Shown piece by piece: positions 2,830 to 50,429 of a stretch of DNA of 64,000 nt; position 1 is the stretch's first letter, and every line of letters starts with the position of its first letter. Origin of the DNA: Candidatus Liptonbacteria bacterium (GTDB lineage Bacteria; Patescibacteriota; Minisyncoccia; UBA6257; 2-01-FULL-56-20); NCBI GenBank assembly GCA_016194445.1, contig JACQBP010000035.1:4396-68395 (forward strand), in the 5' to 3' direction. The notes below the pieces were generated by a model. The model was not told the DNA's origin and searched no databases. It worked only from the letters and a program-made list of their open reading frames with translations. A program made the position numbers and the translations under genes.

Positions 2830-2896
2830 CCAGGTAGTAGAAACTCGACTTTGTTTTTTTGGAAGTAAAATGCCCAGTCGAGTTTTCACTACCCGG
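2829..2896. repeat. GTAGTAGAA/TTTCACTAC hairpin element, copy 1
   Basis: CCCAGGTAGTAGAAACTCGACT ... AGTCGAGTTTTCACTACCCGG forms a 21-bp imperfect inverted repeat. The same stem with the same mismatches recurs at 40148..40208 and 43492..43550. Confidence 0.6.
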
Positions 2897-2999
2897 TGTT
2901 AATTTGACTCAACCCCTAGTTCGGGTATATTGACGGAAGCTGGAGGTTTGGGGAAGATCGACTTTGACACAGTAAAAACAGGAAGGAGGTGACCCCTAA

Positions 3000-3653
3000 G
3001 TGCTCTATCTTTTCGTTTTAACGGTTGCAATTTTCGCCTTTATTCTCGTGAGGCGAAAAAGCGAACGGGCTCTCGTGAACAGAGTCGAAGACTTGGCGAA
3101 GCTCGGGAAGGTGAAAAAGATCCGGGTTTTATCGAGTTGGTTTATCCCGGCGATTCTTGAAGAGTACTTAGTCGAGCCGGAGAGAGAAACGCGAGAAAGG
3201 GAGGAGGCAAGAGATTTAAAAGTGGCCTGGCCGGCCGAAGAGCCGGAGATGATCGAGATCAAGGTTTCAGCGCACTCAACTTTTTCCATACCGAGGTATT
3301 TTCCGGCGAGTATTATGGGGAAGCTTGAGTGGTACGAATTCTGGCCAATTATTGCCGAGCACGCAGGAGTTTGGCACTTGGCTCAAGTGGAGGAAGAGGT
3401 AGTCACGGCCGGCCGGACTCGCAAAGTGAAGCGAGTGATCTCAACGCGAGATTTTCTTCACACTGGAGAGAGGATCGGAGTCATTGTCCGAAAAGCCTTA
3501 ATGGAAGAAAAGGAGGAACATCACTATCGGGCGCCAAACCAGGGTTACTTGTTTTCACTTCAAGTCTCAAGTGGGATGGAAGTGGAGCCGGGGAACGTAC
3601 TGGTGGTAATGGCGATTCCTACCGGTCGACCAGCGACCAAGAAACCAGACTAG
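3000..3653 (+). CDS. hypothetical membrane-anchored protein (GTG start)
   Basis: ORF with an N-terminal TM helix. The overlapping ORF 3329..3748 in another frame has a non-protein-like composition and is judged spurious. Confidence 0.4.
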   Translation: MLYLFVLTVAIFAFILVRRKSERALVNRVEDLAKLGKVKKIRVLSSWFIPAILEEYLVEPERETREREEARDLKVAWPAEEPEMIEIKVSAHSTFSIPRYFPASIMGKLEWYEFWPIIAEHAGVWHLAQVEEEVVTAGRTRKVKRVISTRDFLHTGERIGVIVRKALMEEKEEHHYRAPNQGYLFSLQVSSGMEVEPGNVLVVMAIPTGRPATKKPD

Positions 3654-4410: not shown

Positions 4411-4457
4411 CGTTTTATTGATTGATAATATGTTAAAAATTGATTAGAGTAAAGACA

Positions 4458-7052
4458 ATGGCGAGGGTGATTTCTATTTGTAATCAAAAAGGCGGGGTGG
4501 GGAAATGTTTGGCGCCAGGGACGCCGGTGCTTCTTTCGTCTGGAGAACTGGTGCCTATCGACAGGGTTTTTGAAAAGCACTGGGGAGATAATTTAGTGAA
4601 GAGGCTTGATAGCGACGGCGGAGTTTTTATTAAACCGAAACATGAGATCGGGGTTTTTTCTTTAGATGACGAACTTAAGATCGTTGAGGGCAAGGTGGAG
4701 GCTTTATACCGAGGAAGAGCGGAAAAGCTTCTCGAGATTAGAAGTAGTAGAGGTAAAACAGTAAAGGTAACCCCCACACACCCTTTCTTGTCGTTCAGGA
4801 ATGGTAAGCCAGGGTGGGTGTGTGCCAATGACTTGGAGGAAGGTGATTTTATTGCGGTACCCCGACAGGTCGAAGTCAGAAGTCGGAATAGCGCCGTAGA
4901 TCTGATTCCGATGGTTCCAGATGAAATTTATCTTTGGGTTAAGGACAAAGACTTTGTGGATGTTCATTTGGCCGACATTCTTTCCCGATCGAGTTTGAAT
5001 CTTGAGGATAAAATATTGTTTCAGCTCTTACAACAAGAAGAGGTGTCCGCTTCCAAACTTTATGCCACAGGAGGCAAGCCAGCTGTTTTTAAGCATCTGC
5101 GGTCGCTTTTGGCCAAAAATGTTGTAAGCCGAAGGAGGAGAGGGGAATATGTTTACTCACTCATTCGGGAAGGGGCCGTTGATTATATGTATCGGAGAGG
5201 TTTTTCGGTTCGAGTTTTTAAGGAGTGTGGTTGGGATAAAAATATGATTGCTAAGATGGGCTATCGCACTCGTTTTGGTTACACGTGTATTCCTATAAAC
5301 CCAATCTGGGAATTGGATAGAGATTTGGCGATTTTCCTCGCTATTATTTTAGCCGAAGGATATCTTGGGCCGTCGCGGATTGTGCTGTTTCATACCTCGC
5401 CTGAGATATTGGATTTTTTTAGCGCCTACTGTAGGAGGGTTGGGCTCCGATGCCAAAAAGAGTGGGTTGGTAATCAGTGGAAAGCGACGGTTAATCAAGC
5501 CGGAACCTTGATGAAGATTCTTCACGAGGTAGGGGAGGTGCCAATACGAGGCAATCGGAAATCATTTAAGGTTAAGGTTCCGGGGGTGGTGCTACGGGCA
5601 CCCAGAGAAATCTTAGCCGCTTATCTTGGCGCCTACATCGGCTGCGAGGGGTATATTGCAAAGGACAGGTCTACGGTTGAAGTGACCAGCGCTAGTTTTG
5701 AGAATATTATTGGGCTACAATATGCTTTTTTGAGATTTGGAATTAACAGTACTTTGAGGAGTGGATGGAAGTGGGCTACTAATTCTCCTGCGCCAAAGAA
5801 AAGGATGTATCACTTTCTTACCATTACCGGCTCTCATGATCTGCGGATTATTTTGGAAGGTTTGCCGATTTTGATTGAGGAAAAAGTCGAGAAACTCAAG
5901 AGGGTCTGTGAACTGAAACCAAACACTAATGTTGACGTAGTGCCAGGGGTAGGGTATTTGATAAAGTCGGTTCGGCAAAGCTTGGGGTTGCGGCAAAGAG
6001 ATGTCGGCATCCAAGGAACAATTACTGATTATGAAGATGGCAGTAATAATCCGTCAAGAACGGCGATCCAGGGAATGGTGGCCACTCTTTCGAGGAGCCC
6101 TTTGTTTTCTTATCAGGATCTCGAGGTAGAACTTTTGGATCGACTGGGATTCTCGGATGTGTTTTGGGAGCGGGTAACTTCTAAAACTTCTAGCGATTAC
6201 GATGGCTACGTTTATGATTTAACTGTTGGTAAATTCCATAATTTCATAGCTGGACAGGGTGGGTTGGTGGTGCACAATACGACGACGGCCGTTAATTTGG
6301 GGAGCTATTTGGCGGCGCTCGGTCGGCGGGTGTTACTCGTGGATTTTGACCCGCAGGCGAACGCGAGTTCGGCTTTGGGTTATGATCCTTTGCGGACGGA
6401 GCTTAGCGTTTATCACGGCATTATTAACGCCGCGCCGCACGAACACGTGATCCGGCCAACCGCCCTATTTAACTTTCATTTAGTGCCGGCGGCGCCGCAT
6501 TTGGCCGGAGCTTTAGTTGAGTTTGTGAATTTGCCGGAGCGGGAATATTTCCTTCGAAAGTTTATTAATCGCGTCAGACATAGCTACGATTATGTTTTAG
6601 TGGACTTGCCGCCGTCCTTGAGTCTGCTCACCGTGAACGGTTTGGTGGCATCGGATGAAGTTTTGGTGCCGGTGCAGGCGGAGTATTATAGCTTAGAAGG
6701 ATTGGGTCAGCTTTTGCAGACGATTGATTTGATTCGAAATAATTTGGGACACAACATTAAGGTTAGCGGCGCGGTGCTTACCATGTACAATAAGGGCGAA
6801 CGGTTGAGTCGGGAAGTGGCGACGAATTTAAGGAAAAATTTTCCGTACACTGTTTTCAACACTGAAATCCCCAGAAGTGTGGCGCTCGCGGAGGCGCCCA
6901 GTTTTTCGAAGCCGGTGATGCTTTACCGGCCGGATTCGATCGGGGCTTTAGCATATCGGAATTTGGCGGCGGAGGTTATGGCTCAAGAGAAGGAATTGAT
7001 TGCGGGGGCGATGGTAGCGAGTCAAGATTTTGGAAATTTTAATGTTATTTAG
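4458..7052 (+). CDS. soj: chromosome-partitioning ATPase ParA/Soj interrupted by an intein (possible alternative start at 4440)
   Basis: MARVISICNQKGGVGK then C...; after residues VVHN the extein resumes TTTAVNLGSYLAALGRRVLLVDFDPQANASS, a typical ParA. The Walker A motif KGGVGK|T is split by the insertion. Confidence 0.85.
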   Translation: MARVISICNQKGGVGKCLAPGTPVLLSSGELVPIDRVFEKHWGDNLVKRLDSDGGVFIKPKHEIGVFSLDDELKIVEGKVEALYRGRAEKLLEIRSSRGKTVKVTPTHPFLSFRNGKPGWVCANDLEEGDFIAVPRQVEVRSRNSAVDLIPMVPDEIYLWVKDKDFVDVHLADILSRSSLNLEDKILFQLLQQEEVSASKLYATGGKPAVFKHLRSLLAKNVVSRRRRGEYVYSLIREGAVDYMYRRGFSVRVFKECGWDKNMIAKMGYRTRFGYTCIPINPIWELDRDLAIFLAIILAEGYLGPSRIVLFHTSPEILDFFSAYCRRVGLRCQKEWVGNQWKATVNQAGTLMKILHEVGEVPIRGNRKSFKVKVPGVVLRAPREILAAYLGAYIGCEGYIAKDRSTVEVTSASFENIIGLQYAFLRFGINSTLRSGWKWATNSPAPKKRMYHFLTITGSHDLRIILEGLPILIEEKVEKLKRVCELKPNTNVDVVPGVGYLIKSVRQSLGLRQRDVGIQGTITDYEDGSNNPSRTAIQGMVATLSRSPLFSYQDLEVELLDRLGFSDVFWERVTSKTSSDYDGYVYDLTVGKFHNFIAGQGGLVVHNTTTAVNLGSYLAALGRRVLLVDFDPQANASSALGYDPLRTELSVYHGIINAAPHEHVIRPTALFNFHLVPAAPHLAGALVEFVNLPEREYFLRKFINRVRHSYDYVLVDLPPSLSLLTVNGLVASDEVLVPVQAEYYSLEGLGQLLQTIDLIRNNLGHNIKVSGAVLTMYNKGERLSREVATNLRKNFPYTVFNTEIPRSVALAEAPSFSKPVMLYRPDSIGALAYRNLAAEVMAQEKELIAGAMVASQDFGNFNVI
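4506..6278 (+). mobile_element. large intein (591 aa) with a LAGLIDADG homing-endonuclease domain inserted in the parA P-loop
   Basis: Starts with Cys (CLAPGTPVLL). Block B is VTPTHPF. LAGLIDADG-like blocks are LAIFLAIILAEGYL and LGAYIGCEGYI. Block F/G is VYDLTVGKFHNFIAG...VVHN, followed by the +1 Thr. Confidence 0.8.
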
Positions 7053-7094: not shown

Positions 7095-8228
7095 ATGCTA
7101 GGCAAAGGATTAGAATCTTTAATTCCGCCGGGGGGTGGACAGAAGCCGAATGATGGCGGATCCAGCCAGTCTCAAGATGCGGGTTTGACGGGACAGGCCC
7201 CGATACTAGAATTTCGAAAACCTGAAGGTTCGATAAGTTCGAAATTCAGTACGGGACAGGCCCAGCCCCACTTTCGAGAGAAAGATGGAGCTGGGCAAGC
7301 CCGGATAGTAGAAACTCGGAAGCCTGAAGGTTCGACGAGTTCGAAATTCAGTACGGAACAAGCCCAGCCCCACCTTGTGGATAAAAGTGGAGCTGGGCAA
7401 CCGCGCCTTCGCGAGCACGCTTCGGCGGGCGAGGCGATTTTTCAGATTGAAGTTTCAAAAATTAAACCGAATCCGCATCAACCGAGAAAAGATTTCGACG
7501 AGGAGTCAATCAAGGAACTCGCGGCGTCAATTAGCGAGGTAGGGATTTTACAGCCCTTGGTGGTCACTAAAGTTGAAAAAGAGACGCCGACGGGGACGGA
7601 TGTTGAATACATACTGATCGCTGGGGAGAGGCGGCTTTTAGCATCCAAGAGATTGGGGTTAGAGAGGGTGCCGGCTATTATTAAAAAATTGGATTTTGAA
7701 AGAGAGAGACTCGAGATGGCCATTGTCGAGAATCTCCAAAGGGAAGATCTGAACCCCATTGAAACCGCGAGGGCCTTTTCGAGACTGCAAGATGAATTCA
7801 ATTTAACCCAACGAGAAATTGCCACTCGTTTAGGCAAAAGCCGAGAGGCGGTGGCGAACACCGTCAGACTTTTAGATTTGCCGGTCTTTATACAAGAGGC
7901 GCTGGCGAGAATCCAGATCACGGAGACGCACGGAAGATTGTTACTGGCGGTGGCTGATCCGGCGGCGCAGAGGAAACTTTTTGATGATATTTTACTCAAA
8001 AGAATGACCACTCGGGAGCTCAAAGAAAGAGTCAAACCTCAAAAAGGGAACAGCGGAATTTTAACTGGGAACGATTTACCTCCCGAACTTCAGAGTTTGC
8101 AAGAAGAATTAGTCTCGAAATTAGGAGCGCCAGTGCGGATTCAGCAGCAGGGTAAAACTGGGAAAATTACGATCAGCTTCTTTTCCGAAGAAGAACTCCG
8201 AAGCATTGTCGAGAAGTTAGGCAATTAG
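7095..8228 (+). CDS. spo0J: chromosome-partitioning protein ParB/Spo0J with an N-terminal repeat insertion
   Basis: MLGKGLESLIP start; ParB box IKPNPHQPRKDFDE and GERRLLASKRLGLERVPAII; HTH region. Roughly 95 aa of tandem repeats sit between the N-terminus and the ParB-N domain. Confidence 0.85.
   Translation: MLGKGLESLIPPGGGQKPNDGGSSQSQDAGLTGQAPILEFRKPEGSISSKFSTGQAQPHFREKDGAGQARIVETRKPEGSTSSKFSTEQAQPHLVDKSGAGQPRLREHASAGEAIFQIEVSKIKPNPHQPRKDFDEESIKELAASISEVGILQPLVVTKVEKETPTGTDVEYILIAGERRLLASKRLGLERVPAIIKKLDFERERLEMAIVENLQREDLNPIETARAFSRLQDEFNLTQREIATRLGKSREAVANTVRLLDLPVFIQEALARIQITETHGRLLLAVADPAAQRKLFDDILLKRMTTRELKERVKPQKGNSGILTGNDLPPELQSLQEELVSKLGAPVRIQQQGKTGKITISFFSEEELRSIVEKLGN
7198..7261. 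repeat. MITE-like element with terminal inverted repeats (CCCCGATAC...GTACGGG), in frame within parB
   Basis: About 75-80% identical to 14215..14280. A second partial copy lies at 7300..7365, giving a tandem repeat with a period of about 120 bp. Confidence 0.6.
7300..7365. repeat. second (partial) tandem copy of the MITE-like element inside parB
   Basis: AAGCCTGAAGGTTCGACGAGTTCGAAATTCAGTACGGAACAAGCCC is near-identical to 7214..7261. Confidence 0.55.
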
Positions 8229-9725: not shown

Positions 9726-11783
9726 TTACTCCGATTCTAAATTAGCTTCGGCTGATGTTTTGATTTTCTCATCTTCTTCTTTTTTCTCTAAGGGATTAGT
9801 CCAAGAAGCGTAGTCGCAGTCGGGGTATCTTGAGCAACCCCAGAAGATTTTGCCGCGGGCGCGACCCTTCTTATTCACTCTTTTTTCAATCACGTCACCC
9901 TCATGACACTTAGGACATTTCAAACCGATAGTTTTATCACCCCCCTTTAGGTTTTTAGTGTTTTTACAATCCGGGAAACCGGAACAGGCGATGAATTTTC
10001 CGAAGCGACCGAATTTGACAATCATCGGTTTACCGCATTTTTCGCAGACTTCATCGGTTTTTTCATCGACGATCTCTTGCTTGGAAACGGCTTCGTATTT
10101 TTGTTCCAGATTTTTAGAGAAAGGTTCGTAGAATTCCTTGATGGTGGTTTGCCAGTTTTTTTTGCCTTCGGCAATTTCATCGAGTTCCTCCTCCATTTTA
10201 GCCGTGAAATCAATGTCCACGATTTTGGGAAAATTTTCACTCAAAACTTTGTTGACGAGAGTGCCGATTTCGGTGGGGTGAAAATACCGAGCCAGTTTTT
10301 CAACGTAGTTTCGGTCTTGAATTACAGAAATGGTGGGGGCGTAAGTGGAGGGCCGGCCGATGCCAAATTTTTCTAAAGTTTTAATAAGACTAGCTTCGTT
10401 GTAGCGAGGAGGCGGTTCGGTGAAGTGCTCTAAAGGATTGATTTCAATGAGATTGAGCTCGTCTCCTTTGGCCACGGCTGGCAAAGTTTTTTCTTCAAGT
10501 TTGGTTGGCCAAACTTTTAAAAAACCATCAAAACGCATGACATTTCCTGTAGCATGTAACATGTAACATGTAGCAGTATTTTTTGGTTGGGCCGAGATTT
10601 CGATGCGGGTGGCGTCTAAGATGGCGGGAGGAAGTTGAGAAGCGATGAAACGTCGCCAGATAAGGTCGTAAAGTTTTTGCTCGTCTTTTTCTAAGTTTTT
10701 CTTGGTCTTGATTTGACCGAATTCGAGCGGGGCGAAGTCAACATTTGAAGGGCGGATGGCTTCGTGCGCCTCTTGGGCTAACTTGGATTTGCCATGGTAG
10801 GTTTTTGGTCCTTGGCTGTATTTGGATCCGAGATGGTTTTTAACCCAGCTTTCAGCAGATAAAAGGGCGTCTTGAGCAAGATTCACCGAATCAGTTCGCA
10901 TGTAAGTAATGTGACCTTTTTCGTAAAGGGATTGAGCGAGGTACATAGTTTTCTTCGAGGAGAAACCAAAAGCTCGGGAGGCTGTTTGCTGGAGAGTGCT
11001 CGTAATAAAAGGAGGCATCGGGTTTTTCCGGAGTTCGCTTTGATTGACCGCTGCGATTTCGTAGAGCGATTGCATAAGATCGGTTTTGATGACTTCCACT
11101 TGATCCTTAGTTTTAAGGCTCAATTTGGGAATGGTTTCATGATTAATTTTGACGAGGGTGGCTTCGAGTTTCTCATTTTTTTTCGTTTCTAAAAGAGCCG
11201 TCAGAGTCCAGTATTCTTCCGGATGGAATTTTTTGATTTCTTCTTCGCGTTCAACGATCAACCTTAAAGCGACGGATTGAACCCGGCCGGCGGAGAGGCC
11301 GCGGGCGATTTTTTTCCAAAGGAAGGGGGAGAGTTTGTAGCCGACGAGACGATCTAAAACACGTCTGGCTTGCTGAGCGTCAACTAAATGGAGGTCAATC
11401 TCGCGGGGGTTTTTGAGGGCGCTATCAATAGCGGTTTTGGTGATTTCGTGAAAGACGATGCGTTTAACGCGGTCAATTTTACTTTCTTCAAGCTTCAAGG
11501 CGTGGAGGAGATGCCAGGCAATGGCTTCACCTTCGCGATCCTCGTCGGTCGCGAGAATGACGGATTCGGCTTTTTCAGCCACCTTTTTCAGGGCGGTAAC
11601 CTGTTTTTGATTTTTTTTGGGGATAATATATTGAGGCTCAAAGTTTTTTTCAACTTCGACGCCGAGTTTGCTTTTCGGTAAATCTCGGACATGGCCAAAA
11701 GAAGACTCCACTTGGTAATGGGAGCCTAAAAATTTACTGATAGTTTTGGCCTTAGTAGGGGACTCGACGATGACGAGGTTCAT
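9726..11783 (-). CDS. topA: DNA topoisomerase I
   Basis: Toprim MNLVIVESPTKAKTISKFLG and catalytic YMRTDS. C-terminal zinc ribbons CEKCGKPM..C and CPKCHEG. The ORF track extends to 11822; start chosen at MNLVIVESP. Confidence 0.88.
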   Translation of the reverse strand: MNLVIVESPTKAKTISKFLGSHYQVESSFGHVRDLPKSKLGVEVEKNFEPQYIIPKKNQKQVTALKKVAEKAESVILATDEDREGEAIAWHLLHALKLEESKIDRVKRIVFHEITKTAIDSALKNPREIDLHLVDAQQARRVLDRLVGYKLSPFLWKKIARGLSAGRVQSVALRLIVEREEEIKKFHPEEYWTLTALLETKKNEKLEATLVKINHETIPKLSLKTKDQVEVIKTDLMQSLYEIAAVNQSELRKNPMPPFITSTLQQTASRAFGFSSKKTMYLAQSLYEKGHITYMRTDSVNLAQDALLSAESWVKNHLGSKYSQGPKTYHGKSKLAQEAHEAIRPSNVDFAPLEFGQIKTKKNLEKDEQKLYDLIWRRFIASQLPPAILDATRIEISAQPKNTATCYMLHATGNVMRFDGFLKVWPTKLEEKTLPAVAKGDELNLIEINPLEHFTEPPPRYNEASLIKTLEKFGIGRPSTYAPTISVIQDRNYVEKLARYFHPTEIGTLVNKVLSENFPKIVDIDFTAKMEEELDEIAEGKKNWQTTIKEFYEPFSKNLEQKYEAVSKQEIVDEKTDEVCEKCGKPMIVKFGRFGKFIACSGFPDCKNTKNLKGGDKTIGLKCPKCHEGDVIEKRVNKKGRARGKIFWGCSRYPDCDYASWTNPLEKKEEDEKIKTSAEANLESE

Positions 11784-15024: not shown

Positions 15025-15027
15025 CAG

Positions 15028-15049
15028 CTTATAACTTACGACAAATAAC
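15028..15049. repeat. CTTATAACTTACGACAAATAAC motif (also at 20650..20671)
   Basis: 21 of 22 nt identical to the copy downstream of the pseudopilin gene. Both lie upstream of pilin genes. Confidence 0.5.
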
Positions 15050-15259
15050 GAGGAAGATACACAAGAAAGATAATTGTTTCCAGCACCACTTTTTTAGCTT
15101 GAAAAAGGGTGCTCGAATCCTCAATTTTGTTGCTTCGTTGAACCAAGTAGTCCCTCGTCGCAAGGCTTCTCGGGACGATTGAAAACCTAAGTTCGTACCT
15201 CACTAATGTTTTCTAATCGGAGTTATCCACAATCCATTTTTAAAGGGGTTTTGAAGCTG

Positions 15260-16836: not shown

Positions 16837-18552
16837 ATGCGATTACCAGTGCCGGCGGATCAACTTAAAAAAAAACTAGTTCAGGAGGGCTTGATTACGG
16901 CCGAGCGATTTGATGAAATTGCGGTGGATGCCGGGAGGAAGAACCAAGATTTTTTGGACTTAATTATTTCGCAAGGCGTGGCCGAGCAGGGTTACTTGAA
17001 CAATACGCTGGCGGCGCTTTTGGGAGTGCCGCTCGCGAATTTGGAAGAGCGAAAAGTTGATCCAGAGGTGGTGAAGGTACTTTCGGAGGATATTGCCCGA
17101 CAAAGAGAAGTGATTATTTTTGATCGGGAACCGGACGGCAGTTATGACGCGGCGATGGCTGATCCCAACAATCTCGAGACCATTAAGTTTTTATTCCAAC
17201 ATCTTCAGGCGAAAGTTAATCCTTTTTTTGCGAGTAACAGCGATTTGAATCGCGGGTTTGCCATTTACGGTTCTCAAAGCGCTAAAGATTTCAAGAAGTT
17301 AATCGAGGAAAATATTCAGCAGTCCTTAGCGGGCCAGGCGAAGACGATTGAAGAGGCGGCCTCGCTACTACCCATTGTTTCGATTGTGGAAAATCTTTTG
17401 TCTTACGCCATGGCTTCCAGGTCGTCGGATATTCACCTTGAAGTTTTGGAGGACGTGACTTTGGTGCGCTATCGCGTGGACGGCATTCTTTTTGAAATTA
17501 TGAGGATGCCGAAGGCGATTCATCCGGCACTCGTGGCTAGGATCAAGATTTTGTCCGGGTTAAAGATCGATGAGCATTTTCGGCCTCAAGACGGACGCTT
17601 TCATTATCAAATTGCCACTCAAATGATCGACGTAAGAGTTTCAATTTTGCCGACTTTCTATGGAGAGAAAATTGTGATGAGACTGCTTGAGGCGGCGCAG
17701 AAACCTTTGTCGCTTGAGGAATTGGGCATGCTACCGGAGACGGCCAAAGTGATTACGGAAAATTTGAAGAAAGCTTACGGAATGGTTTTGTCGGTGGGGC
17801 CAACGGGTTCAGGGAAAACCACGACCCTCTACGCCTTAATGGATATCTTGAATCGGCCAAACGTGAATATTGTTACCGTTGAGGATCCAATTGAATACAA
17901 CATGCGGTATGTGAATCAGACTCAAATCAACGTCCAAGCGGGGATTACTTTTGCCAATGGTCTGCGAGCCATCCTGCGACAAGATCCGAATATCATTATG
18001 GTCGGTGAGATTCGGGACGCAGAGACAGCGGGGATTGCGGTGCAGGCGGCCTTAACCGGACACTTGCTTTTGTCATCGCTTCACACCAATGACGCGCCGA
18101 CGGTGGTGCCCAGACTTTTTGATTTGGAAGTGCCGCCATTTTTGGTGGTTTCGGTTTTAAACGTGATTGTCGCCCAAAGGTTGGTCCGAAGAATTTGCCA
18201 TTCATGCATCTACTCTTATGAAGTTGGTCAGGAGGTGATGGGGATTATTCGCAGCCAGCTCGAGGAACTAAGTCTCGATCCGGCTAAAGTTAAGTTGCCC
18301 AAAAACTTTTTTAAAGGAAAAGGATGTCCGAGTTGCGGGATGACCGGCTACCGAGGGCGTTTAGGTATTTTTGAAGCGTTAGAGATTAACGAGCAGATAA
18401 AGAGAATCATCATCGGTCCGGATTTCACTTTAGAGAAGTTAAGGTTGGCAGCCCGAGAGCACGGTATGACAACCATGTTTGAAGATGGCTTGAAGAAAGT
18501 GGAACTGGCCATGACGACTTTGGATGAAGTGCTGCGGGTGATTAGGGAGTAA
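16837..18552 (+). CDS. pilB: type IV pilus assembly ATPase PilB/GspE
   Basis: Walker A GPTGSGKTTT, Asp/His boxes and a C-terminal CxxC...CxxC zinc finger. Confidence 0.9.
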   Translation: MRLPVPADQLKKKLVQEGLITAERFDEIAVDAGRKNQDFLDLIISQGVAEQGYLNNTLAALLGVPLANLEERKVDPEVVKVLSEDIARQREVIIFDREPDGSYDAAMADPNNLETIKFLFQHLQAKVNPFFASNSDLNRGFAIYGSQSAKDFKKLIEENIQQSLAGQAKTIEEAASLLPIVSIVENLLSYAMASRSSDIHLEVLEDVTLVRYRVDGILFEIMRMPKAIHPALVARIKILSGLKIDEHFRPQDGRFHYQIATQMIDVRVSILPTFYGEKIVMRLLEAAQKPLSLEELGMLPETAKVITENLKKAYGMVLSVGPTGSGKTTTLYALMDILNRPNVNIVTVEDPIEYNMRYVNQTQINVQAGITFANGLRAILRQDPNIIMVGEIRDAETAGIAVQAALTGHLLLSSLHTNDAPTVVPRLFDLEVPPFLVVSVLNVIVAQRLVRRICHSCIYSYEVGQEVMGIIRSQLEELSLDPAKVKLPKNFFKGKGCPSCGMTGYRGRLGIFEALEINEQIKRIIIGPDFTLEKLRLAAREHGMTTMFEDGLKKVELAMTTLDEVLRVIRE

Positions 18553-18617
18553 GTTTTAAGCAAACTCTACTTTCCTCAACCCGCTTCATTCCTCCAGCGA
18601 AGGACTCGCTTGTCCTC

Positions 18618-18669
18618 GCCGGCTTGCCGCTCGTAAAAACAGAAAACGAGCGGACCGTGCCAAGCCGGC
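18618..18669 (+). other. stable bipartite stem-loop between pilB and pilC
   Basis: GCCGGCTTG/CAAGCCGGC (9 bp) and CCGCTCGT/ACGAGCGG (8 bp) nested stems. Confidence 0.45.
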
Positions 18670-18746
18670 TCCGGGGGTTTCGGAAAGTAAAGTTTGCTTG
18701 GTTTGGGTGGTTAATATATGAAAAGTTGTTTATAATTATAGTAACA

Positions 18747-19958
18747 ATGCTTTTTCATTACCTTGCGGCGGATAAAAATGGGAAGATCACGGAGGGGGAT
18801 TTAGAAGTGGATAATTTCAACCAAGCTCTTCAGTACCTAGCCGGGAAGGAACTCCGGCCGATTTCGGTGAAGCCCATTAAAGAAGCCGGGGCGGGAGCGG
18901 CGCATCATCGGATTTTTGGCAACATCAATTTAACTGATAAAATTTTTTTGACCAGGTACCTGGCTCTCATGCTTCGAGTCGGGACGGATCTTTTATCGGC
19001 GATCGATATTTTGATCGCTGATTTTGATAAGCCGGCCATGAAAAGTTTTCTCTTGGAAGTGCGGGATAATCTAGGTCGAGGCCAGCCTTTCAACCAAACT
19101 TTTGCCCGCTACCCTAAAATTTTTTCACCGGTGTTTATCAGTCTCGTCAAAGCGGCGGAAGCTTCGGGTAATCTTCAGAAAACTTTTGAAGATGCGAGCG
19201 TGTCTTTGGAGAGGGAGGCGGCGCTCAAAAACAGCATTAAGTCGGCGATGATTTATCCGATTATACTTTTGGTCACATCGGTTATGATCTTTGTTTTTTT
19301 GGTAGCTTTTGCTTTGCCCAAAATCGCGAATATTTTTAATGAAAGCGGTATCCACCCGCCGCTTTTTTCGAAAGTAGTTTTTACAATCGGACTTTTTGTG
19401 CACGATCACGCTCTGGCTTTTGGAGGAGGAGCGGTGTTCGTGGTTGGTTTTGGAATTTATTTTTTCTTTAAAAATTCAGTCGGACACCGCTTGGCGCAAA
19501 GATTGTTTGCCCGTTTGCCGATCGTGCGGAAGGTTTATAAAGAACTGGCGGTCCAGCGATTTGCCGCGACCACCAGTTCGCTCATGAAAGCGGGTTTGCC
19601 GATTGTGCAGACTATTAATATCGCGGCTGATACAGTGAACGTGGAAGAGTTTAAGTTTAGTTTAAGGCGGATTAGCGAAGAGGGACTGGCCAAGGGGCTC
19701 ACGGTGAGCGAGGCTTTTAAGCGGGAGGTGGTTTTCCCGAAGCTAGTGACGAATTTGATAGCGGTTTCGGAGAAGGCGGGGCATTTAGAAGAAGTGCTCG
19801 AAACACTCGCGAACTTTTACGCCTCGCGGGTCGAGTCGGCGATCAAGTCGCTAGTTTCGATTTTGGAACCAGTGATGCTCCTCGCGATGGGAGTTTTGGT
19901 CGGGACAGTGGCCCTCTCGATTATCGTGCCGATTTATCAGCTCACTTCGCAGTTTTAG
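18747..19958 (+). CDS. pilC: type IV pilus platform protein PilC/GspF
   Basis: Two GspF repeats and three TM segments. Start moved to MLFHYLAADKNG because the upstream part of the ORF covers the structured intergenic region. Confidence 0.85.
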   Translation: MLFHYLAADKNGKITEGDLEVDNFNQALQYLAGKELRPISVKPIKEAGAGAAHHRIFGNINLTDKIFLTRYLALMLRVGTDLLSAIDILIADFDKPAMKSFLLEVRDNLGRGQPFNQTFARYPKIFSPVFISLVKAAEASGNLQKTFEDASVSLEREAALKNSIKSAMIYPIILLVTSVMIFVFLVAFALPKIANIFNESGIHPPLFSKVVFTIGLFVHDHALAFGGGAVFVVGFGIYFFFKNSVGHRLAQRLFARLPIVRKVYKELAVQRFAATTSSLMKAGLPIVQTINIAADTVNVEEFKFSLRRISEEGLAKGLTVSEAFKREVVFPKLVTNLIAVSEKAGHLEEVLETLANFYASRVESAIKSLVSILEPVMLLAMGVLVGTVALSIIVPIYQLTSQF

Positions 19959-20021
19959 GTGAGGTTAGGATTTTGGGGATTGGTGAGAGAGCGGGGCAGC
20001 GGTTATAATTAAAGAAAGGCA

Positions 20022-20639
20022 ATGCGGCACCTTTTTCGAGCGAGGAAAAAAAGGAGAGGTTTTACTTTGGTGGAGCTGCTCATCGTAGTGGCTTTAATGA
20101 CGATTATGACGGTGATTGTCGTGCCGAATCTGCTCTCTCGGAATATCCGCAAAGAATTTGACAGCACTGTGGACGACATCGTCGCGACTTTGAATCAAGC
20201 GAGGGATAACGCCATTACTTGGCAGAAGGGGACGGTCTGGGGGGTGTTTTTTGAGAGATACAATGTGAATAAAACCTGCGCATTTCATCAGCCACGGTTT
20301 GGTCTTTACTATACAAATGCCGGTTTTAATATTCAGGGTAATGGCGCTTTTAATGACTCAAGTAAGGTAACGCAAATTTACTATATACCCAAGTCGGTGG
20401 CTTTTAATGAGACATCGACATTTTCTGATTACGATGCAACTAAGTGTACTAACCAGAATTGTTTTTGCTTTGCGGTGATGCCGTTTAAAGAAATTACAGG
20501 CAGTTGGTGGAATCAACCCGCTGTGCCGCCAGCAACAACCACGGTTACACTTTATCTTCCAAAAAGCCCACAAGTTTCATCAACCATCACCATTTCGCCA
20601 AATGGGTTTATCAGTTACACCACTTCTTCGGCGCAATAA
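20022..20639 (+). CDS. prepilin-type (pseudopilin) protein
   Basis: RG|FTLVELLIVVALMTIM class III signal. Confidence 0.7.
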   Translation: MRHLFRARKKRRGFTLVELLIVVALMTIMTVIVVPNLLSRNIRKEFDSTVDDIVATLNQARDNAITWQKGTVWGVFFERYNVNKTCAFHQPRFGLYYTNAGFNIQGNGAFNDSSKVTQIYYIPKSVAFNETSTFSDYDATKCTNQNCFCFAVMPFKEITGSWWNQPAVPPATTTVTLYLPKSPQVSSTITISPNGFISYTTSSAQ

Positions 20640-20649
20640 CGACTAATGA

Positions 20650-20690
20650 CTTATAACTTACGACTAATAACTTATGACCAATAACTTATT
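20650..20690. repeat. CTTATAACTTACGACTAATAAC plus degenerate tandem TTATGACCAATAAC repeats
   Basis: Matches 15028..15049 and is followed by roughly 14-bp periodic AATAAC repeats. Confidence 0.5.
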
Positions 20691-20770
20691 AAGAAAAGGG
20701 CAGTCCCGGTGCTACCAAGTGGGACTTTTTTGCTTTTTGGAATTTGCTTACTAGAAATTGAAAATCTGTA

Positions 20771-21457
20771 ATGTTTAACTTAGAAACCATGTTGAATAAG
20801 AACCACTATCCCACTTGTAGCACCGGGCAGTCACTCATGGAACTGATTTTGGCGATGGCGATTGGAGTGGTTTTAGTAGGGGCGGCGATTGTGATTATCG
20901 CGCCAGCCTTAAAGATCGATACGACGACTAATCAAGTGAAAGTGGGGTCGGCTTTAGGGAGGGAACTGGTGGAAGATTTGCGGGTTTTTGCCGAGAGCGA
21001 TTGGCACAATATTGATACCTTAGCCACTGGCACCGCTAACCCTTATTATTTAGCGACCACAACGACGGGGGCGTTTTTTTCTACTCCTGGGGTACAGAGC
21101 GTAAGAGTGGGCACGACGACCTTTACCCGTTACTTTTATTTGACGGATGTTTGCCGGGAAGTGGGCGTTAGTACTGATTACGTGACGAGTACATTGCTCT
21201 GCGTGTTTCCACTTAAAGCTGATCCGGGGACGAAGGAGGCGACGGTGGTTTTTCAATGGCCGCAGAGCGCGACCAACACTTTTTCGACTTATTTTACCCG
21301 GTTTAAAAATAGAAATTACAGCCAGACGGACTGGTCACAGGGGCCCAATCAATACACGCCCGGTTCGAGTTCGTTCCAAGGATTTGGAACGTCTTCAAAT
21401 TTGGATTACTCGAGCACCACCGGTTCTTTTAGAATAATATTAGAAGCCAATCCATAA
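20771..21457 (+). CDS. pilin-like protein
   Basis: N-terminal TG|QSLMELILAMAIGVVLVGAAI prepilin-like hydrophobic segment. Confidence 0.5.
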   Translation: MFNLETMLNKNHYPTCSTGQSLMELILAMAIGVVLVGAAIVIIAPALKIDTTTNQVKVGSALGRELVEDLRVFAESDWHNIDTLATGTANPYYLATTTTGAFFSTPGVQSVRVGTTTFTRYFYLTDVCREVGVSTDYVTSTLLCVFPLKADPGTKEATVVFQWPQSATNTFSTYFTRFKNRNYSQTDWSQGPNQYTPGSSSFQGFGTSSNLDYSSTTGSFRIILEANP

Positions 21458-21458
21458 A

Positions 21459-22484
21459 ATGAGGAAAATTTTCAAACGAAATCAGATTTTTTTGGCGGTC
21501 GGTTTAGGTTTGGCTGCTTTTTCGATCCTTTTAGTTCGAGAGATTAGAGAGGCGCCGCGAGTTCGGGCGAGTAACATCACTAACATCTGTCCGGGAGACA
21601 GCAGTTGCTTGGGTTCGACTGATCACTGGGCGTGGAACGATATAGTGGGGTGGATAGATTTTTATAACCCACCCGGTGACCCCGGGGTGTTGGTTCAATC
21701 GAAAAGAGTGGTTGGTTGGGCCAGTTCGTCGGTGGGAGATCTTTCTTTGAACTGTGAAAATACAGGAAACTCATCTGGCAACGATTTTTGCAGTCAGAGT
21801 AACTACAAAGTTTATAATAATGGAGCGGGCTATCTTTCCGGCTGGGCTTGGAATGATGTGGTGGGCTGGATTAGTTTTTGCGGAGATCCGAATTCAATCT
21901 CAACCGATAAGTGTCCACAAGTTGCTCAAAAATATCAGGTGGTTCTCCTACCTTCTGGGACCGATGCTAACGGCAACGATTTGCCACCCAGTACTTTTAA
22001 CGGGTGGGCGTGGAATGACGCCGTGGGTTGGATTAGTTTTAACTGCCTTGATCCTGGGTTTTGCGGCACCTCTGATTACAAGGTGAAAACTGGCTGGTAC
22101 GCCACTTCAACTTACGGGGACGTTTATTCTTCGATTTTTGATACCGGAGTGACCGGAGGCGCGCAGTTTAATTCGATCACCGTGATTGGCGATATACCAT
22201 CCGGAACTAATTTTTTATTTCAATTAGCGACTACCTGCACGAATAGCGGGAGTAGTCCGCCGAGTTGCTCAAGTAATGATTGGAAATTTATAGGACCTGA
22301 CGGGACCACTAACACTTTTTATCAAGGGTCGGGTGTGGGGAGTTGCTCAACTTGCTACGTTAAGTTGGATTATCAGGTCCACAATAACGCCCGATACTTT
22401 CGCTACCGAGTGAGACTAAAGTCGGATAAAACGCAAAACATTACCCCGAGAGTGGACGATGTGATTGTGAATTGGAGTCCGTAG
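21459..22484 (+). CDS. secreted repeat protein with three GWAWNDxVGWIxF repeats (candidate pilus-associated adhesin)
   Basis: Signal anchor. Repeats are WAWNDIVGWIDF, WAWNDVVGWISF and WAWNDAVGWISF. Cys-rich, located inside the T4P cluster. Confidence 0.5.
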   Translation: MRKIFKRNQIFLAVGLGLAAFSILLVREIREAPRVRASNITNICPGDSSCLGSTDHWAWNDIVGWIDFYNPPGDPGVLVQSKRVVGWASSSVGDLSLNCENTGNSSGNDFCSQSNYKVYNNGAGYLSGWAWNDVVGWISFCGDPNSISTDKCPQVAQKYQVVLLPSGTDANGNDLPPSTFNGWAWNDAVGWISFNCLDPGFCGTSDYKVKTGWYATSTYGDVYSSIFDTGVTGGAQFNSITVIGDIPSGTNFLFQLATTCTNSGSSPPSCSSNDWKFIGPDGTTNTFYQGSGVGSCSTCYVKLDYQVHNNARYFRYRVRLKSDKTQNITPRVDDVIVNWSP

Positions 22485-22509
22485 AATTAGGTGATAGGTT
22501 GTAGGTTAT

Positions 22510-22518
22510 AGGGTATAA
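22510..22518 (+). promoter_or_regulatory. -10-like GGTATAAT box followed by AAAGGAG
   Basis: Lies between the inverted GTTGTAG copies and the CTACAAC tract. Confidence 0.3.
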
Positions 22519-22548
22519 TTATGAAAGGAGAAAGTTACTTTCTAAATA

Positions 22549-23124
22549 ATGCTTTTTCTACAACCTACAACCTACAACCTACAACATGTGCGAGGACAAG
22601 CGGCGTTGGCGCTCATTTTCCTGATCGGGGGGACGGTGGTGCTACTTGCGGCCACGCTGGCTTTTCTGATTTTTAACTTTATTAATTCCACCTACGGTTA
22701 TCAAGCCGTTAACAGGGCGCTCGGGGTAGCGATGGCGGGGGCGAATGACGCGTTAATTAAGCTAGTGAGAAATAGAGATTATAATAGTGGTGATATGAAC
22801 TCCAGCAATAAGTATTGGCTTGGTAATGGTGGTGCTCTTCTCGGTAGTTGTAGGTATTACCTTAGTGTTGAGAAAGACCGAGCTGAAATAGAGATACTTC
22901 GGCAAGACACTAATAATTATTGTACTCCCAGCAACGGCATTGTAGTAGCCAATATTCCAACTAATGAAGCATTTGTAAATGTTGAGGCGGCTGTTTCGGG
23001 GAGGAGAAGGAGGATAGAGATGGTAATTTCGATTAATCAAACAACGGGCGAGGTGAAGGTGGTTTACTTGAGGCAATTTTTGAGCGGTCAAGGAGGAGGC
23101 GTTTGTTATCCGTCCTGTAACTAA
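22549..23124 (+). CDS. pilin-like/pseudopilin protein with a 5' heptanucleotide repeat tract
   Basis: VRGQAALALIFLIGGTVVLLAATLAFLIF hydrophobic N-terminus. The codons for TTYNLQ are (CTACAAC)x4. Confidence 0.5.
   Translation: MLFLQPTTYNLQHVRGQAALALIFLIGGTVVLLAATLAFLIFNFINSTYGYQAVNRALGVAMAGANDALIKLVRNRDYNSGDMNSSNKYWLGNGGALLGSCRYYLSVEKDRAEIEILRQDTNNYCTPSNGIVVANIPTNEAFVNVEAAVSGRRRRIEMVISINQTTGEVKVVYLRQFLSGQGGGVCYPSCN
22558..22585 (+). repeat. (CTACAAC)x4 heptanucleotide tandem repeat inside the 5' end of the CDS
   Basis: Four perfect 7-nt units. Two inverted copies (GTTGTAGGTTaTAG) lie 46 bp upstream at 22497..22510. Confidence 0.8.
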
Positions 23125-23125
23125 A

Positions 23126-24643
23126 ATGTGGCTTAATAACTATTTAAACAAATTACTGGTTTTACTGCGAGCCCAGCCGCAGGTGGGAGGTTTGGAGATT
23201 GCTGACTCGGCTTTGCGTTTTGCCCGCTTTATCGGTCGGGAGTGGCAAATGGTGAGTTTAAGGTTGCCGCCGGGAGTTGTAAAGGCCGGCCAGGTGGCGG
23301 ATTACGGGCAACTAGTTTTAACCTTGAAGCAACTCAAAGGTCAATTACCTCACGCCGGGAGCGATCGTCAAAATATATCAGCGGTGGTTTGTTTGGGGTC
23401 CTTAAATGTTTACACGCAAGTGATGAGTTTGCCGGACATCGAAGAGAGTCGGTTGGATGAGGCAGTGCGGTTGAATATCCAGATGGTTTCGCCGGCGAAC
23501 GCGGCGGAGATTTATTCTGGCTGGCAAATAGTTGGTAAAAATGAAAGCGAAAGGAAGCTCGATATCCTAAGCGCTTTCGTGAATCGTTCGGTGGTAGATG
23601 AGATAAGCAAAGCGCTCAAAGAAGCCGGTTTTTTAGGAGTGGTTTTTGAGTCCCGGGCGATGGCGATAGCAAGATTGGTGAGAGAGAAAGCTGTGGGAAT
23701 CAACCAAGCTCGATCGCATTTGATTTTTATTTTGGACAACGACGTGTTTGATATTTTAGTGACGAGAGGCGGAGAACTTTATTTTGAATACTTGAATTAC
23801 TGGAAAGATTTAAGGGGGGAGAATAAATTAATTTCCCTTTTGGATTTTCGAAATATGGTGGTGAGTAACTTACGAAAAGTTTTTAACTTTTACAGTCAGC
23901 ATTGGTCGCAAGATATTGAAAATGTTATCCTCGTCGCCACGGGCTTAAACGATGAGATCAAAAAAATCGTTAAAGAAAACTTTTCTCTGGAAGCTAGGGA
24001 GTTGGAGATCAGTTTAGATCGGCCGGTGACTTCAGAGTGGTATAACGTTTTAGGCAGTGGGCTGCGAGGGATAAAAAGCCGAAAAGACGATCGGGAAATC
24101 AGTCTTTTCGTTACCAGCGCTCGAGACGAATTTAGAGAAGAGCAGGTGGTCAGTTTCATGAAATTTTGGCGACTATTGATTCCGGTGGCCTTAGGGTGGC
24201 TTTTGATTTTTTTCTTGGCGACTAATTTTATATTGATGAGGAAGGTCGGCACGCTTAAGTCTTCCGGCTTGATGTTTGATAGCGTAAAGTCGAAAGAGGT
24301 GGAAAATTTACAGAACGAAGCCAAGTTGTTTAATCGTTATCTGGGTTTAATCAGCGCTCGGCGGAGTTTGAATGGATCAAAAACATTGGCGCTTGAGAGA
24401 ATCAGCAAACTCATGAGTGATAATAACATTACCCCTGATCGGTTTAGTTTCCGGGATTTTAATTCCAGAATAGTGTTGCTCGGAGAAGCAAAAACGAACG
24501 CTCAAATCTTAGACTTTGAGAAAGCGCTCCAGACGGATCCTCAGATATCCCAGGTTGATTTGTCACTCACCGAGATCAAGCCCAGTCCTCAAGGTTTTTC
24601 TTTTTCGATTAGCTTCGCAATCATCCCTGGAAAAAGTGAGTAG
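23126..24643 (+). CDS. PilM-like actin-fold protein fused to a PilN-like TM/periplasmic segment
   Basis: N-terminal FtsA/PilM-like region, central TM helix (LLIPVALGWLLIFFLATNFIL) and a C-terminal coiled/periplasmic part. Confidence 0.55.
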   Translation: MWLNNYLNKLLVLLRAQPQVGGLEIADSALRFARFIGREWQMVSLRLPPGVVKAGQVADYGQLVLTLKQLKGQLPHAGSDRQNISAVVCLGSLNVYTQVMSLPDIEESRLDEAVRLNIQMVSPANAAEIYSGWQIVGKNESERKLDILSAFVNRSVVDEISKALKEAGFLGVVFESRAMAIARLVREKAVGINQARSHLIFILDNDVFDILVTRGGELYFEYLNYWKDLRGENKLISLLDFRNMVVSNLRKVFNFYSQHWSQDIENVILVATGLNDEIKKIVKENFSLEARELEISLDRPVTSEWYNVLGSGLRGIKSRKDDREISLFVTSARDEFREEQVVSFMKFWRLLIPVALGWLLIFFLATNFILMRKVGTLKSSGLMFDSVKSKEVENLQNEAKLFNRYLGLISARRSLNGSKTLALERISKLMSDNNITPDRFSFRDFNSRIVLLGEAKTNAQILDFEKALQTDPQISQVDLSLTEIKPSPQGFSFSISFAIIPGKSE

Positions 24644-43305: not shown

Positions 43306-43491
43306 TTTTTCCTCCTTGTCGAGTTATGAGTTAAACTTAGCTGGCTTTAAGGTAACATAGTTTTGGTAATTATTACAAGCGAGCCCTCGCGGCCTCTAAC
43401 AGGATTGACAAATTCTATACCTTTGGTATGATCGTTCAACACTATCAGACCAAGAGGCATAGTCGAGTTTCTAGGTAAAAACCAGGTAGTA

Positions 43492-43550
43492 GAACTTCGG
43501 CGTGTCGCTTTTCGCGACTGCGTTTAATCGGCCGAAGTTTCACTACCTGG
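43492..43550 (+). promoter_or_regulatory. long imperfect hairpin in the cspA 5' leader (GTAGTAGAA/TTTCACTAC element, copy 3)
   Basis: CCAGGTAGTAGAACTTCGGC ... GCCGAAGTTTCACTACCTGG, 14 nt upstream of the csp ATG. Confidence 0.55.
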
Positions 43551-50159: not shown

Positions 50160-50429
50160 TCCCCGGTAGCTCAGTGGTAGAGCGGATCCCTGTCGGATAG
50201 GCAGCCTACAAGAGTAATCTTGTTTGAAAATTTCGGGATAACGGTGAACCCTTCGATACGCTTTGGCATATAAAGGTAACACCGTGGGAACCTCGCAATT
50301 TGCGGGGGCACCGTAGAGACTAGATACCGAAACATCCCAGTTGGGATGATGATATAGTCCGCGCCCTTTGGAAACTTTGGGATAAGTGTAAGGATAAGGT
50401 CGTAGGTTCGAATCCTACCCGGGGAGCCA
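50160..50429 (+). tRNA. tRNA gene interrupted by a group I intron; most likely tRNA-Asn(GUU)
   Basis: 5' exon (50160..50193) is TCCCCGGTAGCTCAGTGGTAGAGCGGATCCCTGT. 3' exon (50389..50426, plus CCA) is TAAGGATAAGGTCGTAGGTTCGAATCCTACCCGGGGAG+CCA. Joining them gives the anticodon loop CUGUUAA. U1:A72 and G73 match bacterial tRNA-Asn. Confidence 0.75.
50194..50388 (+). ncRNA. group I self-splicing intron (about 195 nt, small IC3-like) in the tRNA anticodon loop
   Basis: Conserved core elements are present: P-like AATTTGCGGG, R-like GTAGAGACTAGA and S-like GATATAGTCC. The 5' exon ends in U and the intron ends in G. A possible P1 pairs exon CUGU with intron GCAG. Confidence 0.7.

Follow-up and report, generated by a model that had tools for sequence, protein, structure and literature searches.

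In Neisseria opa genes, CTCTT tracts lie within the leader-coding sequence; they are long and demonstrably polymorphic, and have no inverted partner. The element described here is a (CTACAAC)x4 tract at the 5' end of a prepilin-like gene of a Candidatus Liptonbacteria bacterium, found together with inverse copies upstream of it in a 64,000-nucleotide stretch of contig JACQBP010000035.1 (the whole of which is called the window below). The closest described systems are of several kinds. In the 5' untranslated region (UTR) of Haemophilus influenzae hmw1A and hmw2A, an (ATCTTTC)n repeat is the left arm of a long hairpin whose right arm is G-rich and which is cleaved by RNase III; this hairpin is needed for repeat-number change, and the number varies among the natural alleles, none of which has fewer than 11 units (PMC12721329). 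In Xanthomonas, GGGAATC arrays with a modal number of four units form 70-75 convergent inverted pairs at an average of ~28 nt from the 3' end of the upstream open reading frame (ORF), and their function is unknown (PMC4692102). The pil1 switch of Streptococcus gallolyticus combines GCAGA repeats in a leader peptide with a terminator stem-loop (PMC3894217). Finally, invertons of the fimS type have inverted repeats around a promoter upstream of a pilus gene.

In the window, Tandem Repeats Finder reports the unit CTACAAC at 22558-22585 (period 7, 4.0 copies, 100% matches) and a degenerate array of TAGGTTA at 22488-22517 (4.3 copies, 82%), the units of which read TAGGTGA, TAGGTTG, TAGGTTA and TAGGGTA. 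The two arrays contribute the arms of an inverted repeat (22488-22511 and 22558-22581; 24 nt, 88% complementary) with a 46-nt spacer, and three more pairing registers exist besides the main one. A sequence-only reading of this DNA had pointed out a (CTACAAC)x4 tract with inverted copies 46 bp upstream, and both are real, the tract being perfect and the inverse copies degenerate. The 14-mer CTACAACCTACAAC, allowing up to two mismatches, occurs five times in the window, on the two strands and always at this locus, versus 0.22 occurrences expected, and a count of five was reached in none of 100 shuffles. The CTACAAC tract, which is translated, makes up the downstream arm of a bracket that the inverted repeat forms around the gene's own TATAAT promoter and ATG; by bracket we mean an inverted-repeat pair with its left arm after the upstream stop codon and its right arm in the leader-coding region. 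The bracket begins 3 nt past the stop codon of the upstream gene (21459-22484), and 8 nt separate its end from the Gly-Gln codons of the prepilin-like gene. The features of the locus are as follows.

22488..22517, + strand: left arm, the degenerate inverse array, seen by Tandem Repeats Finder, as an inverted-repeat arm and in the minimum free energy (MFE) fold; it overlaps the -35 region and spacer of the internal promoter
22491..22519, + strand: sigma-70-like promoter GTGATA-17-TATAAT, with the -10 box at 22514-22519; best match in a 6-kb scan (10/12)
22520..22548, + strand: spacer and predicted short 5' UTR, with AAGGAG at 22525-22530 and a small internal stem; top of the long hairpin
22549..22551, + strand: ATG start of the prepilin-like gene, conserved; an in-frame ATG lies upstream of the array in all relatives
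22549..23124, + strand: prepilin-like minor pilin ORF of 191 aa, abutting the PilM/N gene at 23126
22558..22585, + strand: right arm, perfect (CTACAAC)x4, translated as LQPTTYNLQ in the leader peptide
22588..22590, + strand: in-frame GTG, a possible alternative start, not conserved
22594..22599, + strand: Gly-Gln codons (G16, Q17), invariant alignment columns at the start of the hydrophobic core GQAALALIFLIGG; putative prepilin cleavage site

The RNA of 22480-22610 is predicted to fold into one long hairpin (-42 kcal/mol, z = -5.5), which none of 200 shuffles equalled in stability, and in the MFE fold the left array pairs with the CTACAAC tract. The predicted stability plateaus at exactly four right-arm units, that is, at the length of the ~4-unit left arm. 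An intrinsic terminator was considered and rejected, as 46 nt separate the arms, the right arm is followed by ATGTGCGAGG with no U-tract, and a terminator scan gave no site here; nor was a terminator found between the upstream gene and the left arm. A known RNA family was also rejected, since the sole Rfam matches in 18400-23300 at E<=1 were sub-threshold ones to the let-7 microRNA precursor (22488-22588, both strands; 26.7 and 25.6 bits versus a gathering score of 53.5), which are a chance resemblance of a hairpin containing TAGGTTGTA. A G-quadruplex in the left arm was dismissed because, among the related loci introduced below, G3 tracts are present only in L019 (TAGGGnn units), most left arms having none.

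The element differs from hmw, Xanthomonas and pil1 in its translated arm, its enclosed promoter and start, its lineage-specific unit and the lack of any number variation seen. With hmw it shares a 7-nt repeat as one arm of a long hairpin with a purine/G-rich partner at a surface adhesion gene, and in hmw it is the hairpin, besides the DNA repeat, that matters for expression; however, in hmw the promoter is upstream of both arms, which belong to the 5' UTR of the gene itself, and the repeat is non-coding, whereas here four units without observed variation are translated, the left arm is repetitive as well as the right, and the arms enclose promoter and start. The Xanthomonas GGGAATC arrays and the short tandemly repeated repetitive (STRR) sequences of Nostoc and Calothrix, which are intergenic, resemble it in having a 7-nt unit, about four units and a convergent pair just past the upstream ORF (PMC4692102), but those are single unit families dispersed genome-wide and able to form G-quadruplexes, while here the unit is specific to locus and lineage (one locus in the 64-kb window), one arm is coding, and a promoter and start are enclosed. 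As in Neisseria opa, a non-triplet repeat lies in the cleavable leader of a surface protein, where a change of one unit shifts the frame; in contrast to opa, the tract is short, invariant in all comparisons, and accompanied by a conserved complementary partner. The likeness to pil1 lies in a pilus locus with a frameshifting repeat in a leader ORF plus an RNA hairpin, but the pil1 leader is a separate upstream ORF and its hairpin is a downstream intrinsic terminator melted by ribosomes, whereas here the repeat is a hairpin arm in the pilin's own leader, with no U-tract after it. Invertons likewise place inverted repeats around a promoter upstream of a pilus gene; the present locus differs from them in its single orientation, its 46-nt spacer (typically >150 bp in invertons), its tandem-repeat arms and the absence of an adjacent recombinase.

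For comparison, 13 related loci from GTDB genomes and 17 from metagenomes were collected (loci and contigs are given by L numbers), and extra contigs were obtained by exact-protein look-ups of homologues of the upstream 341-aa gene, which number 1113 at E<=1e-10. The comparison covers ~25 distinct lineages. The bracket is conserved across Patescibacteria with co-varying arms. A strong inverted repeat is present in 12 of 25 distinct lineages and a weaker one in five more; some lineages (L004, L006, L010 and L013) lack the bracket wholly. Depending on the lineage, the units belong to the families CTAMAAC/CCCTAMA, TTCTACT/ATTCTAC, CTACCAA, CAYTATT, TTTGCCA, CTGGTCG, TTCGC.. or CTCTGTG..; at least eight unrelated unit families keep their arms complementary. 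When all arms were paired with all others, the own partner ranked 1-3 of 25, better partners coming solely from the same unit family, and the pairing score averaged 22.6 on the diagonal versus 12.6 +/- 4.9 off it. The CTAMAAC family is common to this window, L003 and L021 at 47-55% protein identity, and the architecture as such recurs at genes whose proteins have diverged to about 31-33% tblastn identity. The left arm begins 1-16 nt past the upstream stop codon (..NWSP*), the right arm begins 3-25 nt past the ATG, and from the end of the right arm it is 5-17 nt to the G|Q codons. Inside the bracket the position of the promoter varies between lineages; nearly every locus has a consensus TATAAT between its arms, and the ATG often follows after only 5-11 nt (leaderless-like spacing). 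In L009, L012, L025, L029 and L041, a bracket is also present at the other prepilin gene of the cluster.

What the bracket does can be read in more than one way. The reading that we favour, as a tentative one that is plausible but short of probable, is that the bracket is a pairing element on read-through RNA that would insulate the minor-pilin cistron. RNA reading through from the upstream gene would carry both arms, which would pair as a ~24-28-bp duplex and close the initiation region into a stable hairpin; the hairpin would block initiation and would likely be an RNase III substrate, so that read-through transcripts would not express the minor pilin, which would thereby be uncoupled from upstream transcription. 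Because the arms enclose the promoter, a transcript started there would not contain the left arm, and occlusion of the start would therefore be possible only on read-through RNA. In the fold of the own-promoter transcript the tract is predicted to be unpaired, and transcripts from the internal promoter, with a G-free, unstructured 5' coding region, would be translatable. It had been proposed from the letters alone that the upstream copies pair with the tract in mRNA and occlude the ribosome-binding site and start codon; this holds in part, in that the hairpin is predicted, conserved and co-varying, but it would not apply to the gene's own transcript. The right arm ends where the dispensable leader peptide joins the conserved pilin core, and the bracket would take on the role that a local hairpin has in bracket-less relatives. 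The 7-nt periodicity would come from slippage-prone heptamers, which would also keep the array homogeneous, and frameshift switching is possibly a by-product or secondary property rather than the main function.

An RNA role is favoured because the arms are anchored to stop and start codons, the predicted stability saturates at four units, and local hairpins alternate with brackets. As to the last, bracket-bearing loci have almost no local structure between the stop codon and the -10 box (0 to -0.17 kcal/nt) and strong local hairpins (-0.20 to -0.33 kcal/nt) occur there in six of nine bracket-less loci, although this comparison is small and confounded by G+C content. Several further points weigh against insulation by RNA pairing. 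That transcription reads through, where it starts and that RNase III cleaves the hairpin are all matters of inference, and pairing by itself needs no 7-nt periodicity. Where relatives have leaderless-like spacing (5-11 nt from TATAAT to ATG), ribosomes might fail to start at an internal AUG of read-through RNA in any case, which would make occlusion redundant. Moreover, L026 and L028 have a perfect right array and no left arm. The arm mismatches on the + strand comprise 9 G.T versus 14 A.C and 24 others, which gives no sign of G.U tolerance, and the folding energies of the + and - strands are mixed; therefore, the complementarity could be kept at the DNA level. Wobble pairs were also considered as an indicator of the functional RNA strand and set aside as uninformative, being confounded by arm composition. 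No RNase III gene turned up among the scanned ORFs of the window, but the window covers just a part of the genome.

Some of the related loci bear on the history of the bracket. The proteins of L025 and L029 are 80% identical and carry entirely different brackets at the same gene. Within one genome, the brackets of the two prepilin genes are alike in L009 (1113-1321 and 2940-3039), L012 and L029, and the pilX-like bracket of L029 resembles that of its own minor pilin gene. These patterns, taken from the sequences, suggest that whole promoter-leader cassettes may be replaced or gene-converted. In L032 (1083-1294), a TATAAT-ATG-right arm module is tandemly duplicated downstream of one long left arm. 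Three ENA assemblies (L037, L038 and L039), with an identical upstream protein, diverge from L033-L036 and L040 right after TATAATTAA in the bracket loop, ~55 nt past the upstream stop codon, and continue into an unrelated small ORF on the minus strand; the three assemblies either have a structural variant with its breakpoint in the loop or are chimeric.

The same observations can be taken to mean that the element acts as DNA, either as a cruciform or slipped structure modulating the promoter or as a recombination or template-switch substrate, perhaps a mobile promoter-leader cassette, with RNA pairing being incidental. The complementarity is of Watson-Crick type with no strand-specific wobble bias and the arms flank a promoter, as such an element would have it; the likeness of two brackets within a genome, the module duplicated in L032 and the divergence of L037-L039 inside the loop fit as well, and L025 and L029 differ wholly in their brackets, which implies that both arms were replaced together. 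However, one orientation of promoter and ATG was seen throughout the lineages and contigs examined, it is the stop and start codons, not the promoter, to which the arms are anchored, and spacers of 46-117 nt are, from general knowledge, unfavourable for cruciform extrusion and short for recombinase synapsis. Furthermore, the sole recombinase of the window, a large serine recombinase (50415-52016), lies 28 kb away, and none is present in the pilus cluster. We regard a DNA-level role as rather improbable. An inverton was rejected, as no locus shows a flipped orientation and that distant serine recombinase is the only one in the window.

Whether the repeat is translated matters for any reading in which the frame can shift. 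The CTACAAC tract begins 6 nt past ATG 22549, and GTG 22588 is in the same frame. All of the tested arrays (17/17) are open in frame, and in every array-bearing lineage the frame that opens at an ATG shortly after the TATAAT box continues through the array into the Gly-Gln codons. Several units contain a stop triplet in one phase, namely CTAAAAC, CTAAACC, CTAGATT (twice) and TACTAAC, and each of the five stop-prone arrays carries a substitution in exactly the stop-giving unit (e.g. CTATAAC, CTATGTT); arrays with stop-free units are often perfect, matching at 28/28 positions in seven of 17 arrays. From the open frames and the substituted stop-giving units it follows that the arrays are translated as part of a short leader peptide ending ..RG|Q. 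Across lineages the leader has 9-24 residues, and its sequence is not conserved among relatives. Between array and core the relatives have no further start codon; GTG 22588 of this window is the sole exception, and an equivalent of it is absent in L003, L009, L021 and L058. The possibility that translation starts at this GTG, which had been put forward for checking, thus has no counterpart in the relatives, and ATG 22549 is the conserved start. Given the in-frame arrays and the substituted stop-giving units, gain or loss of a unit would truncate the protein: computed products with two, three, five or six units have 22-44 residues (22 with three, 44 with five), and the frame is restored with one, four or seven. 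The sequence-only reading was therefore right that the tract is coding and that gain or loss of one unit shifts the frame after the start.

From here it is a short step to slipped-strand phase variation, in which a CTACAAC unit gained or lost at replication would shift the frame, so that part of the population would turn the minor pilin off and on, probably together with PilM/N, whose gene abuts it translationally. In favour of it are a perfect 28-nt array of a 7-nt unit inside an ORF, the truncation and restoration of the frame just described, a leader-peptide location that is classic for such tracts (as in Neisseria opa, from general knowledge), and a period of seven, not a multiple of three, in nearly all lineages (28/45 tandem arrays; see below). 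The coding right arrays are far purer than their non-coding left partners, seven of 17 being perfect while the left arrays decay, as ongoing homogenisation produces; this suggests continuing homogenisation and some slippage activity. In addition, the independent Logan assembly of SRR12113410 breaks within the tract, one contig (L001) ending at 22583 and another (L002) starting at 22556, with a 28-nt overlap; these contig ends, however, are irreconcilable with the branching of a simple mixture of three, four and five units at k = 31, and low coverage is a possible cause of the break. Other Logan contigs (L046, L057) also end at or near brackets.

The number of units, by contrast, argues against switching. 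Related arrays have 3-4.7 units, with one of 6, and ~4 in essentially every lineage. Four independent assemblies of the lineage with a perfect ATTCTAC x4.7 array (identical upstream protein) have identical arrays, and the same is true of four and of six independent assemblies of two other array-bearing lineages; for each of two lineages with weak or no arrays, five assemblies crossing this junction agree, and both existing assemblies of the target genome (n=2) have four CTACAAC units. No copy-number variant or out-of-frame (OFF) allele was seen in the ~25 lineages or in the three multi-assembly relatives, and exact-protein look-ups with the 191-aa product and the 178-aa (GTG-start) product gave no record besides the NCBI copy. 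L025, L026 and L028, with mature proteins of 78-92% identity, have leaders of equal length. Contingency loci with heptamer or tetramer repeats that have been characterised are far longer (at least 11 units in hmw alleles), and the four units here (28 nt) fall short of the tract length for high-frequency slippage, a threshold taken from published systems. Slippage also leaves the conserved inverse array, and the repeat-free brackets described below, without explanation. Hence, of the classic slipped-strand architecture claimed for this locus, the perfect non-triplet repeat in an ORF near its start remains, but it has four units and no variant in number was seen in the assemblies compared; because ~4 units are found everywhere, variants are lacking there and the inverse array is left unexplained, a classic contingency reading is supported only in part, and we think phase variation unlikely to be what the tract is for. 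It should be added that neither pairing nor switching alone accounts for the ~4-unit periodicity of both arms.

The target gene stands in a type IV pilus cluster with PilB, PilC, two pilins of the N_methyl type and a PilM/N fusion, in which two further inverted repeats are present.

16837-18552: PilB
18558..18699, + strand: inverted repeat at the PilB/PilC junction without tandem repeats; arms 18558-18582 and 18675-18699 (25 nt, 88% complementary, 92-nt spacer)
18624-19958: PilC
20022-20639: pilin with N-methylation motif
20699..20833, + strand: repeat-free bracket at the minor pilin gene 20771-21457; 20699-20725 pairs with 20811-20833 in the leader-coding region (-49 kcal/mol, z = -4.1)
20771-21457: minor pilin
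21459..22484, + strand: upstream 341-aa gene from the ORF list, function unassigned, with repeated GWAWND.VGWI motifs and C-terminus ..VNWSP*; in relatives, too, the ..NWSP* end stands directly before the bracket
23126-24643: PilM/PilN fusion

In both repeat-free brackets the left arm is just past a stop codon and the right arm falls within the 5' end of the coding sequence that follows, and the three brackets of the window (18558-18699, 20699-20833 and 22488-22585) are mutually unrelated in sequence. Since their sequences are unrelated and the CTACAAC unit is unique to its locus, the property common to them is complementarity in cis and not a site for a shared factor. This bears on the idea of a protein operator, on which a repressor would polymerise along 7-bp repeats on either side of the promoter like the omega repressor of inc18 plasmids. 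The 7-bp periodicity, the arrays in both orientations around the promoter, and the similar arrays at two genes within one genome (L009, L012, L029) would suit an operator, but the units differ radically between close relatives, two of the three window brackets have no repeats at all, CTACAAC occurs nowhere else in 64 kb, and no regulator gene is conserved in the cluster. An operator is thus very improbable.

Heptamers are common in these genomes. In 190 kb of these Patescibacterial genomes, 28 of 45 tandem arrays (>=2.8 copies) have a period of 7 or 14, the other period-7 arrays of the window using units other than CTACAAC, and heptamers are over-represented in bacteria generally, possibly via the polymerase active-site footprint (PMC4692102). 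The bracket might then be a functionless mutational by-product, in which slippage-prone heptamers are tolerated in leader and spacer, quasi-palindrome correction keeps the two arrays alike, and selection acts only for an open frame. Besides the dominance of heptamers, the lack of conservation of the leaders as peptides and the bracket-less lineages L004, L006, L010 and L013 agree with such an origin. It is opposed by the recurrence of the architecture in at least eight unit families and at two prepilin genes, down to ~31-33% tblastn identity, by the uniform arm length of ~4 units, by the constant positions relative to stop and start codons, and by repeat-free brackets of the same geometry; we deem it quite unlikely that the bracket is without function.

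The target protein itself is annotated by NCBI as a 191-aa product in a Candidatus Liptonbacteria metagenome-assembled genome (HY093_03540), and searches of Pfam and NCBIfam with it gave no match. In the homologue alignment, an invariant Gly-Gln is followed by a hydrophobic core, GQAALALVFLIGG, and the canonical pilin Glu+5 is absent from the target protein. The AlphaFold model (predicted local distance difference test score 73) has a 60-residue N-terminal helix (15-74) packed on a five-stranded sheet, and the best Foldseek matches, which are weak (E about 0.1), are ComZ, the Streptococcus sanguinis minor pilin PilA and GspK/XcpX. The neighbouring minor pilin has the same G|Q before its E+5 motif (..STG|QSLME), by analogy with which cleavage of the target protein would occur after Gly16. 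Because the protein has no Pfam or NCBIfam match and lacks Glu+5, it is a divergent, PilX-like member of the type IV prepilin-like proteins; the earlier description of the gene as pilin-like agrees with the pilus cluster, the invariant G16-Q17 with its hydrophobic core, the predicted alpha-beta fold and the weak Foldseek matches to pilins.

Other repeats were noted in the window and in the related loci. A 14-nt tandem array, (ACTTATGACTAATA) x3.4, lies at 20642-20689 right after the stop codon of the major pilin gene; a related sequence, CAGCTTATAACTTACGACAAATAAC, follows the stop codon of a pseudouridine synthase gene at about 15025-15050, and no complementary partner for the ACTTATGACTAATA array was found in the window. 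The topoisomerase I gene, on the minus strand, contains an in-frame heptamer array within its coding sequence, TGTAACA x3.6, at 10548-10572. A palindromic element, CCAGGTAGTAGAAACTCG...CGAGTTTTCACTACCCGG, similar to repetitive extragenic palindromic sequences and Rickettsia palindromic elements (REP/RPE-like), has three sites in the window (2830-2896, 43482-43550 and 7197-7400), and one copy is a 2 x 102-nt in-frame tandem in the N-terminal extension of ParB. Relatives of this element are inserted in frame in pilX-like leader regions of other Patescibacteria (L005, about 2940-3000; L020, about 1070-1177), where they are flanked by duplicated GGNCAGGCC (Gly-Gln-Ala codons); in this the element resembles the Rickettsia palindromic elements that insert into coding regions. 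Among the other genes of the window are a ParA/MinD-type ATPase split by an intein with a LAGLIDADG domain (4440-7052), the large serine recombinase mentioned above (50415-52016), which stands beside several ORFs without a Pfam match and possibly belongs to an integrated element, and a LexA-like/S24 domain fused to an N6/N4 DNA methylase (56067-58177), beside a MutH-like nuclease.

A full-text literature search returned no paper connecting Patescibacteria, type IV pili and phase variation. The locus could also be viewed more broadly, as an exchangeable Patescibacterial promoter-leader cassette whose duplex both insulates the minor pilin and, as in hmw, drives gain and loss of units, toggling pilus tip components in these episymbionts, as a repeat switch that depends on an RNA hairpin but is placed in a coding region; we consider this combination a doubtful one, with a low chance of being correct. 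For genome annotation, the locus is a caution that a short non-triplet repeat at the 5' end of a gene is not automatically a contingency locus. The element links the over-representation of heptamers, the inverted heptamer pairs of Xanthomonas and cyanobacteria, and the repeat hairpin of hmw, and taken together these make it conceivable that paired heptamer arrays serve as a structural device more generally. In the ultra-small Patescibacteria, type IV pili are regarded as having a central part in host attachment and DNA uptake, gene regulation is almost uncharted, and a bracket of fixed geometry and freely co-varying sequence at the prepilin genes of many lineages is a concrete candidate for a regulatory module there.

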